A stretch of DNA of 64,000 nucleotides from Candidatus Obscuribacteraceae bacterium (GTDB taxonomy: Bacteria; Cyanobacteriota; Vampirovibrionia; Obscuribacterales; Obscuribacteraceae). The notes under the pieces were generated by a model. That model worked only from the letters and a program-made list of their open reading frames with translations. It did no database searches and was not told the origin of the DNA. The translations under genes were made by a program, and so were the position numbers. Of this stretch, positions 53,912-57,777 are shown in pieces. The DNA is taken from positions 1 to 64,000 of the forward strand of contig JBGAHS010000011.1 in NCBI GenBank assembly GCA_044226015.1, written 5' to 3'. The stretch's first letter is position 1. Every line of letters starts with the position of its first letter.

Positions 53912-54811
53912 TTACTTCTTCGGCGGGAGGTAAGCACGGAAGTATTTCTCTTCCTTGTAGCGGCCAAAACGATCATCTAAACCTTCTTTACGCCATGTTC
54001 CACCATAATTGTCGTAGACCATTCGTTTGCCATTTTCGATACCGCCTACGATACCAACATGGCGCGTTGTCGTACCGGGATTTTGTCCCTCGATAATGTC
54101 GCCTTCTTTGACTTCACTGGCGTTTATTTCTTTCATCAATCTCTTCGAAGGGTCAGAACTATTCAGCCCCATGGCTTTGTTCATCTCAGTCATGTTTACC
54201 TGATAGAGTTCTTTATAGGCACTATCTTCGGTGCTATTAATTCGCCCGGACATTTTCAATGTTTCTCGATAACGATTACTAAACGAGGAGACACATCCCA
54301 GTTCTGGTGGGGGAACCGGCAACATGGACTTAGCCCACTTAGGCAGTTTATAGATGGACTGATTTACTACTGCGTCGGCGGATTTCAGCAAAAGCGCGTT
54401 GGCTTCTTCTAGTTCTTCTGGATTGTCTTTAGCTTTTTCGCCAGCATCTTTAACTTCTCCGTTCTTCAGATCACCCGGTTTTGATTCGCCAGACTTCCCA
54501 TCGGATTTGGGATCCTCATGCTTGTCATTTCCCTTGGGATCTGGTTTTGCATCACGTGAATTCTGGTCCACCTTCGAGTCAGCAGATGGCTTTGAATCAG
54601 CTTTTGCAGGCTCATCGGATTTTGCATCCTTCTTGTTATCGAGACCTTCAATAGTAAGATTTGTGAGCTGCGTGCCTTTAAGTTCGGCATTTCGGGGCTC
54701 AACTTTCGAATTGCTCTGCCACTGCTCTGCGGAAAGCTCAGCAGCAGAATTGCGGCCTTTATCACCTTCAGCAGCGACTTTATCGCTTGTATGTTTATTT
54801 TCCAGACCCAT
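53912..54811 (-). CDS. Protein with charged N-terminal region and C-terminal NlpC/P60 (papain-fold) amidase-like domain
   Basis: ELGCVSSFS (Cys), VKEGDII, RHVGIV (His), VYDN; ATG 54811 with GGAGGA RBS. The ORF-track extension to 55093 runs through the promoter and RNA and is judged spurious. Confidence 0.6.
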   Translation of the reverse strand: MGLENKHTSDKVAAEGDKGRNSAAELSAEQWQSNSKVEPRNAELKGTQLTNLTIEGLDNKKDAKSDEPAKADSKPSADSKVDQNSRDAKPDPKGNDKHEDPKSDGKSGESKPGDLKNGEVKDAGEKAKDNPEELEEANALLLKSADAVVNQSIYKLPKWAKSMLPVPPPELGCVSSFSNRYRETLKMSGRINSTEDSAYKELYQVNMTEMNKAMGLNSSDPSKRLMKEINASEVKEGDIIEGQNPGTTTRHVGIVGGIENGKRMVYDNYGGTWRKEGLDDRFGRYKEEKYFRAYLPPKK

Positions 54812-54929
54812 TGCGTACATTCCTCCGACCTTATTATTGTATTTTTTTAAGGAAGGCTGAAAAATGTGTAAGTGTGCAGTTCTTCGCCCCAATCTTCCTC
54901 TATAAGGACACGGATTCCCTGCAAAGCAA

Positions 54930-54958
54930 TTGACAGACATACATTTGTATGGTATATT
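54930..54958 (+). promoter_or_regulatory. Strong sigma70-type promoter with palindrome in the spacer
   Basis: TTGACA (54930-54935), 17 nt, TATATT (54953-54958) with extended -10 TG; CATACA-TT-TGTATG inverted repeat at 54938-54951. Confidence 0.8.
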
Positions 54959-54962
54959 ATAT

Positions 54963-55216
54963 GTGATCGCTCTGGCTGAACTAAGCGTAGCGATCAATTC
55001 TGGGTCAGGCAAAAGCGGATCTGGAAGCGGGAGCCGGCGTGTATCGCGAAAGCGATGCTTGTCCGGGGATGGCAGCCCCCTCTCGCGTTCCATAGGGTCC
55101 GCTAGAAGAGCAGGCTAATTTCCGGCCGGCCGGCTGAAATGTAGAAATCGAAGTTGCACCCGGAAAGCGAGAGCGCAGCGATAGCGCATGGAGATATCTA
55201 GCGCTGGGCGATTCAC
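54963..55216 (+). ncRNA. Unidentified ~250-nt structured non-coding RNA
   Basis: Starts at the predicted TSS; GC-rich island with nested helices 54963-54972/55206-55216, 54998-55005/55158-55165, 55014-55022/55094-55103, 55027-55033/55080-55086 and a GAAA-capped hairpin 55041-55058; no convincing sense ORF downstream. Confidence 0.65.
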
Positions 55217-55287
55217 CGATAGCAAAAACAATAAACACTTAGTCGCCGGCAAAGCTGCTGAATTAACGAGAGCACCAAGCAGGTGAA

Positions 55288-57777
55288 CTAGGAAACGAAT
55301 CTGCCGCTGGCTCTGTCGAATTTCTTAGCATCAGATGGAAGAGCGACGCGATTTCCAGACTCATCCACGAGCACAGAGAACTGATCCGTAGACGCTGCTG
55401 CATCAGTAGAAGCTTCTGGCTTGTAAAGCTTCTTCTTAATCGTTAGTGAGACCAATTTGCCGTTTTCATAACGAGCTGAATTAACATCGTTTGAACTTGG
55501 ATAACGGTAAACTTGCGTCTCATTTCCGCTTTCAGTTGTAACACCGGTAGCATCAATGCGAACAGTTAGACCTGCCTTGTCATTGCGTCCAGTCAAAACC
55601 ATTTCGCCATCAGGACCGAGATTTGAAGCAGCGGCCCAACTGTTAGCGTCGTAAGTGACACCATCAGCTCCCAATATGCCGTTTTCAATTTGGGTCCAAG
55701 CTAGCTGACCTGGATTTGCCGAAACACCCATGTACTTGCCTTCGGCATTGCTTACACGCCAGTATTTGTCTCCACCGGCTTTAACACTTGTACTTCCGTT
55801 TCTCGGATTGTATACGGTCTGAAGTTCCTTTCCATCGGTACCCTTGGTCACTGCCAGTACTGAACTATCATCTAATACCTTCAGTTCTGATACGCCATTT
55901 TCACCAACCTTCAGGGTGCTTAGAGCGCCATCTTTGCCAGGAATCTGTACAGCCTTAGCGACTGGTTTCGGAGGATTGCTACCATCGCTGCCAATGCTAG
56001 CGACAACGCCATTCGGCAAGTAATAGTCACGCAGTCCAGTTGATGTCTTGTCTTGAATGACTGAACCATCCGTCAGAATTTCTACTTTACCTTCAGTGGA
56101 ATTCAGGGTGATGTCTCTTCCTGCGCGGTTGAACCTGAAGGTAGATTCTTTTGTTGCTTTATCGAAAGTCTCGATTACATTACCTGCGTGCTCTGACACC
56201 ATGGTGCTTCCCAAGTCGCGGTAACGGTCTTGTCCAGGTGACTCGTATGTCACATAGGTCTTACCTGGACCACCACTAGTTTCCATGCGAACGGTACCAT
56301 CTGCGGTGACGTTCAAGTTCATGCGCATTACATTGCCGGTGGAGTCAACGAATGTGTTGTAATCAATCGTGTCTTCTATGCTTCTTGGTGGGAGGTCAGA
56401 TGGAGAGCCAGGAGAATTGAGCCCGTGGCTTGAGCGCCAGCGTTCCATACCCGGATAAAGCTCGCGGCCCTGACGAGTCATGACTTGAGTTACTTGATTG
56501 CCTGTTTGATCAGCGTAGGTATGTTGAGCTCGATAAATGTCGCCATTTACGTCTCTCTGGAATTGCCAGGTTCCACGAGGACCAGTGATGCTGGTGACAT
56601 AACCATCTGGATCTTTCTCGACTACGGTGTTGTCTTGACGGTAGGTGGTCATCGATCCATCAGAATGCTGGACAGCTGTGATCGGTTCACCTGGTCGTGG
56701 TTCCTTGTATGTGTAGGTCACATCGCCTGGTCTGGGTTTGTCATTTTCGGTTTGAGTAGCCTGAACGTAGTCAGCACCATTAAAGTACGTGGTGTCTCGT
56801 TGTTCAGGCGGTCCTGGATTTATTCTTACTCTGGAATTAGTGCGAAAATCGCAATCATATTGAATTCCCTGGTTGAACTGAATGCTTGCTTTGTCGACGC
56901 CGCTGCCTAGTTCACGCTTCATGAAGTCTGGCTTTGCTGCATCAGCCGGAACGAACTTGATGCGACCATCAGCCTGGACTTCACCATTGCGATACTCATA
57001 GCCATCCCAATAATCAGACTTAACCTGACCATCTGGACTCATGACGGTGCGCTTCCATGTTCCCAGGTCTACAGCTTGAACAGTGCCATCTGCTCTGCGA
57101 AGATACTCAACACGGTCTGGTCCTTTGCTAGGAACATATTTGATGTCGCCGTTAGCGCGGAAATTCAGGTCACCTTGAACCGATCCATCTGGATTGATGC
57201 GAACTGGAATTCCTTCGAAATTTATTTTGCCATCTTGCGGCATATATTTCCCTGTGGCGCTCATGACCTTCAGGGCGCCATTTGCATCTCTGGCTAGTTC
57301 GATGCTTCCAGATCCATCAGGACTGTTGTAAGCGATTTTTTCAGCACGACCGTCCAGCCTGGTGGACAGTTGATAGTCGTTGCTTCCCAGGCGGAAAGCC
57401 TGCTGCATGATGGAATCGATCACAGGAGCAACGATTTGTTCTGCAACCGGTGCTGGAGGAATAACTTGATCTAGAACCGGACCAATTTGTGTGCGATTGC
57501 CCAGCAAACGAGCAACATTGTCCATCGCATTTATAGCGACGGAGTCGGCTAAGTTTGGTGCTGGACGAAACGGATTTGCATGACCATCGATAACCAATGG
57601 AGCAAGTTGATACTCTCCCGCTGTGCGCTCGACAGTGGTCTTAGCAGGGTCTGTCGTTGAGCGGACATCGCTCAAGAACTGCTCGTTCAAACTTGCATTT
57701 TCTTGCCTTGTGTCGCGAGCATCATCAGTGGTCTTCGCGACTTCTTGCTTTAAAGATTTTTGTTCTGTTCCAGCCAT
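55288..57777 (-). CDS. Large hypothetical protein with YD/RHS-like beta-hairpin repeats
   Basis: 829-aa ORF; recurring x-D-x-x-G turns (ARDANGAL, EKDPDGYVTSITGPRGTWQFQRDVNGDI); no signal peptide. Confidence 0.65.
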   Translation of the reverse strand: MAGTEQKSLKQEVAKTTDDARDTRQENASLNEQFLSDVRSTTDPAKTTVERTAGEYQLAPLVIDGHANPFRPAPNLADSVAINAMDNVARLLGNRTQIGPVLDQVIPPAPVAEQIVAPVIDSIMQQAFRLGSNDYQLSTRLDGRAEKIAYNSPDGSGSIELARDANGALKVMSATGKYMPQDGKINFEGIPVRINPDGSVQGDLNFRANGDIKYVPSKGPDRVEYLRRADGTVQAVDLGTWKRTVMSPDGQVKSDYWDGYEYRNGEVQADGRIKFVPADAAKPDFMKRELGSGVDKASIQFNQGIQYDCDFRTNSRVRINPGPPEQRDTTYFNGADYVQATQTENDKPRPGDVTYTYKEPRPGEPITAVQHSDGSMTTYRQDNTVVEKDPDGYVTSITGPRGTWQFQRDVNGDIYRAQHTYADQTGNQVTQVMTRQGRELYPGMERWRSSHGLNSPGSPSDLPPRSIEDTIDYNTFVDSTGNVMRMNLNVTADGTVRMETSGGPGKTYVTYESPGQDRYRDLGSTMVSEHAGNVIETFDKATKESTFRFNRAGRDITLNSTEGKVEILTDGSVIQDKTSTGLRDYYLPNGVVASIGSDGSNPPKPVAKAVQIPGKDGALSTLKVGENGVSELKVLDDSSVLAVTKGTDGKELQTVYNPRNGSTSVKAGGDKYWRVSNAEGKYMGVSANPGQLAWTQIENGILGADGVTYDANSWAAASNLGPDGEMVLTGRNDKAGLTVRIDATGVTTESGNETQVYRYPSSNDVNSARYENGKLVSLTIKKKLYKPEASTDAAASTDQFSVLVDESGNRVALPSDAKKFDRASGRFVS

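Follow-up and report, generated by a model that had tools for sequence, protein, structure and literature searches.

A multicopy family of structured small RNAs behind a putative LexA operator in Obscuribacteraceae

What is transcribed from a near-consensus promoter that lies between two minus-strand genes and reads against both of them? The question is raised by a locus in the 64,000-nucleotide (nt) stretch analyzed here (the window; positions 1 to 64,000 of contig JBGAHS010000011.1, assembly GCA_044226015.1, from a Candidatus Obscuribacteraceae bacterium), where such a promoter, at 54930-54958, leads into a sequence that can form an elaborate RNA fold. A preliminary description of the locus had proposed a stand-alone, highly structured RNA of about 250 nt with paired ends. 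The comparative analysis described here establishes, with good support, a new family of structured small RNAs (sRNAs). On balance, we consider it reasonably probable that the locus is the gene for a structured sRNA of ~170 nt, one of ten paralogs in its genome, which would be repressed by LexA and made after DNA damage.

The element recurs elsewhere in the source genome (8.19 Mb in 13 contigs, 92.2% complete), in which nhmmer finds ten copies, each of them beginning at the promoter (E-values of 3e-95 to 4.9e-10), as well as one further, marginal match (E-value 2.4). With ten paralogs in the genome, the term ‘stand-alone’ is wrong in one sense; the preliminary description had overlooked these paralogs, together with a dyad resembling a LexA box in the promoter spacer and a GC palindrome on the 3' side. 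The copies are 72-79% identical, with compensatory changes, and the ten have in common the promoter, a YUGGAUCAKGCC linker, a branched arm, a CUAGAAGNGCWG stretch and an invariant CCGGCCGG palindrome. The conserved unit extends from the TTGACA at 54930 to this palindrome, ending at 55133, and because conservation between the paralogs stops there, the implied RNA is ~170 nt long rather than 250. Its core has a GC content of 51-67%, in a genome of 47% GC.

A covariance model built from the ten copies (R1) and run on 104 genomes of the family, and a second model (R2), for which the full set of 20 served as input and which was run with looser filters on the eight genomes of the genus, find the same 20 copies: the ten of the source genome, six in one congener (G007) and four in another (G002), all model matches being in the orientation of the promoter. 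A BLAST comparison with 60 relatives returned as its sole match a 33-nt stretch of the promoter, and a pattern scan of species-representative genomes returned at least 120 matches, mostly attributable to chance. Eighty pattern-scan loci were scored with the model, of which four are real, with bit scores equal to those of the known G002 and G007 copies; a locus in a Streptomyces record received a model E-value of 0.006 (19 bits). Among sequencing runs, those listed as containing this stretch are all of DNA, from metagenomes of sludge, bioreactors and biofilms, and none is of RNA.

The strong evidence for structure is comparative rather than thermodynamic. RNAalifold, applied independently to a MAFFT alignment of the ten copies of the source genome, yields 37 pairs, 13 of them compensatory, in the same arm that the 20 copies support. 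Over the 20 copies, 93.3% of the arm cells are paired, versus 43-53% after a shift of the 3' partners by one to three columns, and changes on both sides are observed in 22 of the 37 pairs (85 cells); none of 500 column shuffles reached these values. Kinship among the paralogs, and the fitting of their alignment to the model, mean that the shuffle figures are not probabilities. In P4 (helix 4) all 12 pairs have changed on both sides, with 92.9% of the cells paired, and in P3 six of seven pairs covary; P1 and the stem of the GGGG hairpin (helix 5, 98.8% of cells paired) are nearly invariant. Alternations of U-A with U-G and of G-U with G-C are frequent and fit only the strand read from the promoter, which agrees with the earlier argument that the many G-U pairs of the window copy favor the plus strand. 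Covariation over 20 copies bears out that the locus is the gene of a structured non-coding RNA, read from a promoter of its own.

Two elements of the fold first proposed are recovered in the minimum free energy (MFE) structures (Table 1), namely a local hairpin at the 5' end and the long arm topped by GAAA and GGGG/CCCC hairpins, the latter built from the helices AGCGGAUCU/AGGGUCCGCU, GGAA/UUCC and GCGGGAG/CUCUCGC. The 5' domain, the sequences of which cannot be aligned, folds in all 20 copies (27-71 nt, -8.9 to -21.2 kcal/mol). The loop of the GGGG/CCCC hairpin occurs in the variants AUGGCAG, AAGGAU, UGGAU and AGGGC. Other elements do not withstand comparison with the paralogs: the outer helices GTGATCGCTC/GGGCGATTCAC and TTCTGGGT/ACCCGGAA, which reach 55216 and are peculiar to the window copy, a ‘second arm’ at 55115-55144 and an AGCGC/GCGCT hairpin fall wholly or partly past the conserved end at 55133, and the 5' end is paired locally in the MFE folds. 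Nor are paired ends of a 250-nt RNA upheld, as the 5' end and the tail downstream of the block pair with z = -0.73 against shuffled controls in the window copy and with z-scores of -2.4 to +1.2, mostly close to zero, over the 20 copies, 19 of which do no better than shuffles (the value of -2.4 belongs to L023). The suggestion of two conformers, which rested on the non-conserved outer helix, finds no support in the conservation.

Table 1. Coordinates of the promoter, the putative operator and the parts of the predicted RNA in the window.
Feature	Positions	Strand	Basis and conservation
-35 hexamer TTGACA	54930..54935	+	Consensus scan; TTGAC invariant in 10/10 copies of the source genome, also in congener copies
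Dyad CATAC-ATTT-GTATG, probable LexA (SOS) operator	54938..54951	.	Promoter spacer, between -35 and -10
Extended -10 (TG-G-TATATT)	54950..54958	+	TGG(Y)A kept in 20/20 copies
Predicted transcription start	54963..54966	+	Inferred from distance to the -10 hexamer
5' hairpin	54964..54996	+	MFE folds; sequence different in each copy, hairpin predicted in all
Linker J1 (AAUUCUGGGUCAGGCAAAA)	54997..55013	+	Semi-conserved YUGGAU...GCC (YUGGAUCAKGCC), alignments A1-A3
Central branched arm, P1-P3 around P4 and the GGGG hairpin	55014..55103	+	Conserved family core; RNAalifold, covariation
P4 hairpin, containing GUAUCGC-GAAA-GCGAUGC	55036..55063	+	Variable, covarying; GAAA loop specific to the window copy
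GGGG-AUGGCAG-CCCC hairpin	55065..55079	+	Stem invariant, loop purine-rich
J3 (AGAAGAGCAG and spacer)	55104..55121	+	Conserved (C)UAGAAGNGCWG, unpaired in the consensus
GC palindrome CCGGCCGG(CCGG)	55122..55133	+	Family conservation ends here
Downstream sequence, copy-specific	55134..55216	+	No paralog similarity beyond the palindrome; outside the conserved element

The promoter (TTGACA-17-TATATT, with TG ahead of the -10 hexamer) matches the consensus at 11 of 12 positions, as expected from the near-consensus promoter with an extended -10 that had been described at the outset; in one copy (L026) the -35 hexamer reads TGGACA. Its spacer holds a CATAC-N4-GTATG dyad, which is exact in seven of the ten copies of the source genome and carries one mismatch in the other three. 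The exact dyad occurs at 11 sites in this genome, comprising the seven RNA promoters, the imu operon, ssb and two others. It stands ~190 nt upstream of the operon, which encodes a RecA-like protein of the ImuA type, an IMS-family protein of the ImuB type and a DnaE2-type polymerase (DNA_pol3_alpha), and ~90 nt upstream of ssb, while the single lexA gene (LexA_DNA_bind and Peptidase_S24 domains) has TATAC-TTAC-GTATG ~45 nt before its start. A 20-mer containing the lexA site, GATACTATACTTACGTATGT, is identical upstream of lexA in seven of the eight genomes of the genus, in which the flanking sequences diverge. Across the family, the composite promoter pattern TTGAC-N3-CATAC-N4-GTATG is found in 74 of 104 genomes, and a reversed control pattern in none. 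Thirty of these promoter-plus-dyad sites were fetched and assigned by eye to 19 imuA-like, four dnaE2-like and four Uma2 genes (two of the last confirmed by Pfam), one gene for a second RNA type (type B, described below) and two sites of unknown assignment. Because it also precedes lexA, the imuA-like/imuB/dnaE2 operon and ssb, and because of the family-wide promoter pattern, the dyad is very probably the LexA (SOS) box of this lineage, as judged from the content of the regulon; and with the promoter dyad read as a LexA operator, the RNA is likely to be repressed by LexA and made after DNA damage.

The predicted core SOS loci of the source genome (G000) are found at C7:719269-725900 (L061; imuA-like/imuB/dnaE2), C8:634893-635475 (L062; ssb) and C1:697528-698266 (L058; lexA, itself at C1:697528-698214). 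An exact dyad (CCATACTCCAGTATGG) is also observed at C9:318655 (L063), between the genes for a 163-amino-acid (aa) protein of no known family and for a coiled-coil protein of 403 aa, both of them possible further SOS genes. Uma2-family genes (PF05685, putative restriction endonucleases) stand behind an SOS-type promoter at L207, L209, L210, L230 and L252 (genomes G068, G010, G015 and G089), with several such genes within the single genome G010.

Published LexA boxes include AGTACWNWTGTACT for cyanobacteria and CGAACN4GTTCG for Bacillus (PMC3091678, in excerpt). With these the present dyad shares a palindromic arrangement, half-sites of 4-5 nt, a gap of N4 and an xxAC-N4-GTxx core (an xTAC/GTAx layout), as well as a place in front of lexA, of ssb and of genes for error-prone polymerases; unlike the GTAC or GAAC of the published boxes, its half-site is ATAC/GTAT. 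A further difference from known LexA regulons is that seven of the 11 exact dyads precede RNA genes.

At the far end of the conserved unit, the CCGGCCGG palindrome occurs 36 times in the genome, 12 of these occurrences being inside the ten RNA copies. It is invariant in all ten and is present, or displaced downstream, in 18 of the 20 copies; in one congener copy GGCGCGCC is found at the aligned place and CCGGCCGG farther downstream. In the window copy the palindrome reads CCGGCCGGCCGG, and it often has symmetric A/U flanks (AAAUCCGGCCGGAUUU). A palindrome of eight nucleotides cannot fold on itself, and dimerization, a closing helix and 3'-end formation remain as options. In RNAcofold predictions for 18 copies, the sole intermolecular pairs fall on the palindrome in nine, including the window copy, for which the predicted free energy difference (ddG) is -15.9 kcal/mol. 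A candidate closing helix or pseudoknot between the YUGGAU of J1 and an AUCCGG of the palindrome has 72% of its cells paired and double changes in two of six pairs, and pairing of the palindrome with a GGCCG junction is, by eye, not kept in the G007 copies.

If the dyad is indeed a LexA operator, LexA would block the RNA promoter until its RecA-stimulated self-cleavage removes it, and the derepressed RNA would then act in trans, by binding a protein or by pairing with itself as a dimer. This mode of action is a possibility about which we retain more doubt than confidence; it is preferred over a simple antisense role because the junction strands are invariant, the loop of the GGGG/CCCC hairpin is rich in purines and the GC palindrome lies exposed. 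The number of copies may serve dosage. No neighboring gene is common to the copies, either within a genome or between species, and the gene downstream is convergent in 12 of 20 cases and co-directional in eight; with mixed gene orientation and unrelated neighbors, the RNA is dedicated neither to acting as a leader nor to acting as an antisense RNA. For the window copy, the gene map confirms the earlier statement that both flanking genes are on the minus strand, the element being the leader of neither.

Several observations weigh against a LexA-controlled RNA gene acting in trans. Taken singly, the window copy has a fold energy that is just modestly unusual (z of -1.7 to -2.1; -1.71 for 54963-55220 and -2.07 for 54963-55133, with -0.93 for the opposite strand). 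Both ends of the RNA, like its inducibility, are predictions, and no terminator-like site, that is, a GC hairpin with a U tract, is present downstream on the plus strand (54930-55600). The 350 nt upstream of recA hold no exact dyad, and six congener copies (L022, L025, L028, L031, L032 and L036) have a weaker left half-site, with nGAC or AGC instead of ATAC, CATAY abutting GTATG. A crude scan for complements of J1 and J3 near start codons found no convincing mRNA targets. The family is narrow, being present in three of the eight genomes of the genus and, with R1, in none of the 96 other genomes of the family, and a pattern scan of Joint Genome Institute metagenomes gave ten matches, none of which was confirmed by the model. 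As all of the genomes are metagenome bins, copy numbers may be off. Finally, the copies are non-syntenic between species, an arrangement that mobility could equally produce.

A selfish or mobile repeat that carries an outward-facing SOS promoter, with an RNA structure serving its own propagation, is accordingly the alternative that survives best, although we regard it as unlikely; a non-autonomous element, or what is left of a retroelement or transposable element, would be examples. SOS control is common among mobile elements, and the multicopy, patchy distribution (ten, six and four copies in three of eight genomes of one genus), the lack of synteny across these three genomes and the sharp edges of the element, at the promoter on the 5' side and at the palindrome on the 3' side, would all suit such a repeat. 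The lack of synteny is weak evidence for mobility because ordinary genes are also poorly syntenic: the two neighbor genes of the window copy are not adjacent in relatives, where their orthologs are 28-62% identical. Against mobility, the combination of 72-79% identity with compensatory changes indicates old paralogs selected for their structure rather than recent transposition. When the copies are aligned together with their flanking sequence, terminal inverted repeats do not show; none of the copies has a gene for a transposase, an integrase or a reverse transcriptase next to it, and the two reverse transcriptase matches of the genome lie far from all of them.

Slightly less likely again is a cis-acting module, in which SOS-induced transcription would read through into downstream genes, running antisense to those that are convergent and forming a leader for those that are co-directional, and the fold would act just as a stabilizer or processing site. 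This would account for the lack of a terminator after the conserved block, for downstream sequence that is different in each copy and for the position of the stop codon in the 12 convergent genes, 11 of which end within 17-189 nt of the core (half of the 12 within 17-69 nt). It is difficult to reconcile with the mixed orientation and unrelated identity of the neighboring genes, and a branched arm in which the junction strands and a hairpin are invariant exceeds what a stabilizer needs.

That the RNA is instead a diverged housekeeping RNA, either a 6S RNA or a protein sponge resembling Y RNA or CsrB, is very improbable. A search with Rfam covariance models, the check that had been proposed for this locus, leaves the novelty of the RNA standing: none of the 4227 families of Rfam 15 gave a match at the gathering threshold across the 64-kb window, and at E ≤ 10 the region 54850-55350 gave three chance-level matches alone (E-values of 1.5-6.8). 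Neither a tRNA nor a transfer-messenger RNA (tmRNA) was found in the locus. The earlier exclusion of ribonuclease P (RNase P), signal recognition particle (SRP) RNA and tmRNA is supported by this result and by the presence of the genuine genes elsewhere in the genome, at C6:773337-773681, C1:499970-500063 and C11:389582-389962, respectively. The likeness to group II intron domain V noted earlier does not hold either. In domain V, a conserved hairpin of ~34 nt combines a catalytic triad with a 2-nt bulge and ends in a GNRA loop; the look-alike here is the P4 sequence, all 12 pairs of which covary and whose GAAA loop is specific to the window copy, and no intron family was matched.

The 6S RNA model (RF00013) has no match anywhere in the genome at E ≤ 0.001, which would leave room for a diverged 6S gene, as had been suggested, and the present RNA resembles 6S RNA in its similar length, in having a strong promoter of its own and in not being a leader. 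Unlike 6S RNA, it has neither the model match nor the rod with a central bubble, consisting instead of a hairpin and a branched arm; its end pairing is not conserved, and it has ten copies and a LexA-type operator. A sponge for CsrA might be suggested by the GG(A/C) motifs of the hairpin loops. However, the loop of the GGGG hairpin has GGC in all ten copies of the source genome and GGA in five of the ten congener copies, which does not correspond to a CsrB-type sponge, and a CsrA gene (PF02599) was not found in the 92%-complete genome. Y RNAs that are induced by DNA damage exist in some bacteria, and bacterial Y RNAs accompany the Ro protein Rsr in Deinococcus and are represented by yrlA and yrlB in Salmonella. 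In common with the bacterial Y RNAs (compare PMC9879122, in excerpt), the RNA described here would be structured, non-coding and produced in connection with DNA damage, and it has several paralogs in each genome, but it differs in lacking a tRNA-like module and an Rfam match, in having copies that are scattered rather than placed beside a partner gene, and in that no gene for the Ro partner (TROVE, PF05731) was found in the 92.2%-complete genome.

The weakest alternative is that the transcript is a structured mRNA from which a small toxin or other small protein would be made under SOS induction, in the way of type I loci like tisB or dinQ. In its favor are control of the LexA type, the extensive folding of a transcript of ~200 nt and the presence of several copies, as in some type I toxin families, but it is close to refuted, as no reading frame stays open across the copies (7 of the 20 cores, including that of the window copy, have stops in all three frames), the loop insertions and deletions are not multiples of three, and no small open reading frame, whether or not preceded by a Shine-Dalgarno sequence, is common to the 20 copies, seven having none that is so preceded and the remainder having unrelated ones that are not hydrophobic.

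Returning to the LexA-controlled sRNA gene, the closest functional counterparts are other sRNAs under SOS control. IstR-2, at the tisB locus of Escherichia coli, is a LexA-controlled small RNA. An SOS-linked sRNA regulates cell division in Klebsiella (PMC10907235, in excerpt), and sRNA genes bound by LexA have been described in Mycobacterium tuberculosis (PMC3381160, in excerpt). The present RNA resembles these as a non-coding RNA gene with a predicted LexA operator in its promoter and hence a putative member of the SOS regulon. The E. coli, Klebsiella and M. tuberculosis sRNAs are short, occur as single copies and act by base pairing, their mRNA targets being known or proposed, compared with which this family has 4-10 paralogs per genome, a length of ~170 nt, a branched covarying arm, a GC palindrome and no detected target, and is unrelated to them in sequence or in Rfam. 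Among the top-ranked results of a literature search, none links Obscuribacter, Melainabacteria or Vampirovibrionia to LexA-controlled or structured RNAs, which is no proof of absence in print.

A second point of comparison is self-assembly. OLE, ROOL and GOLLD are large bacterial RNAs that assemble with themselves, and the RNA of HIV-1 has a palindromic dimerization loop. In the present RNA, too, an exposed self-complementary GC stretch is predicted to be able to pair two molecules; dimerization is a prediction here, and in comparison with OLE, ROOL and GOLLD the RNA is much smaller and without sequence relation.

In other genera of the family, the TTGAC-N3-CATAC-N4-GTATG promoter precedes a second multicopy non-coding family, type B (the RNA of the window being type A), in which a 5' hairpin of variable sequence leads into the core CCUAUGCGCGAGUGUUGCCYRGGGCCCUCGCG...GGGCAGUUAYUCGUGUUGG. 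Its model finds 1-21 copies in 18 of the 104 genomes, in five genera, and none in the genus of the window; none of the searched genomes contains both types, and type B likewise has no Rfam match. The loci comprise L235-L251, L206 and L002 (genomes G116, G109, G110, G114, G117, G018 and G009). A loop hexamer in type B reads CCCGGG in 12 of 19 cases and CCUAGG in seven, and as the two forms alternate without intermediates, and even within one genome, the self-complementarity of this loop is kept. One type B core (L242, in G116) also carries GGCGGCUAGAAGCGCU, the J3 motif of type A, which hints that the two types share an origin or exchange modules. Two near-identical units in the genus of the window (L253 and L254, in G003) have the same promoter and contain GAGCGGAGUGUGCGGGCCCGCCGCUCCGCC; they match neither the A nor the B model and may represent a third RNA type.

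SOS regulons are usually viewed as sets of proteins for repair, mutagenesis and the cell cycle, to which no more than a single small regulatory RNA is added, a view from which a genome of 8 Mb with seven of its 11 exact operator dyads in front of paralogous structured RNA genes departs. If these RNAs are damage-induced, an RNA-based function would be part of the damage response in this non-photosynthetic sister lineage of the cyanobacteria, with protein sequestration, scaffolding and self-assembly as candidate functions. A bolder proposal, and a more doubtful one than trans action itself, is that in Obscuribacteraceae multicopy, ornate sRNAs (4-10 copies of type A, up to 21 of type B) are the largest class of genes behind the strongest LexA operators and pair with themselves through exposed GC palindromes, forming an RNA-assembly or ribonucleoprotein arm of the damage response without counterpart in known SOS regulons. 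The analysis yields a usable LexA-box prediction for the lineage, and the RNA family, with its good covariation, is of a size suited to structural and biochemical study, within the limits set by a narrow taxonomic range and uncultured hosts.

The intergenic stretch that holds the window copy (54812-55287) is bounded by a minus-strand gene at 53912-54811, encoding 299 aa from an ATG preceded by GGAGG, and by another at 55288-57777, with a product of 829 aa; neither protein has a match in Pfam or NCBIfam. A sigma-54 reading of a TGGCAC motif was dropped by eye, there being no GC element at the right spacing. Elsewhere in the source genome, away from the RNA copies, an RVT_1 domain (82 bits; C4:68720-69286) lies in a 323-aa open frame, which we take to be the size of a retron-type reverse transcriptase. 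Relatives of the 829-aa protein in congeners sit in open frames of up to ~1400 aa.

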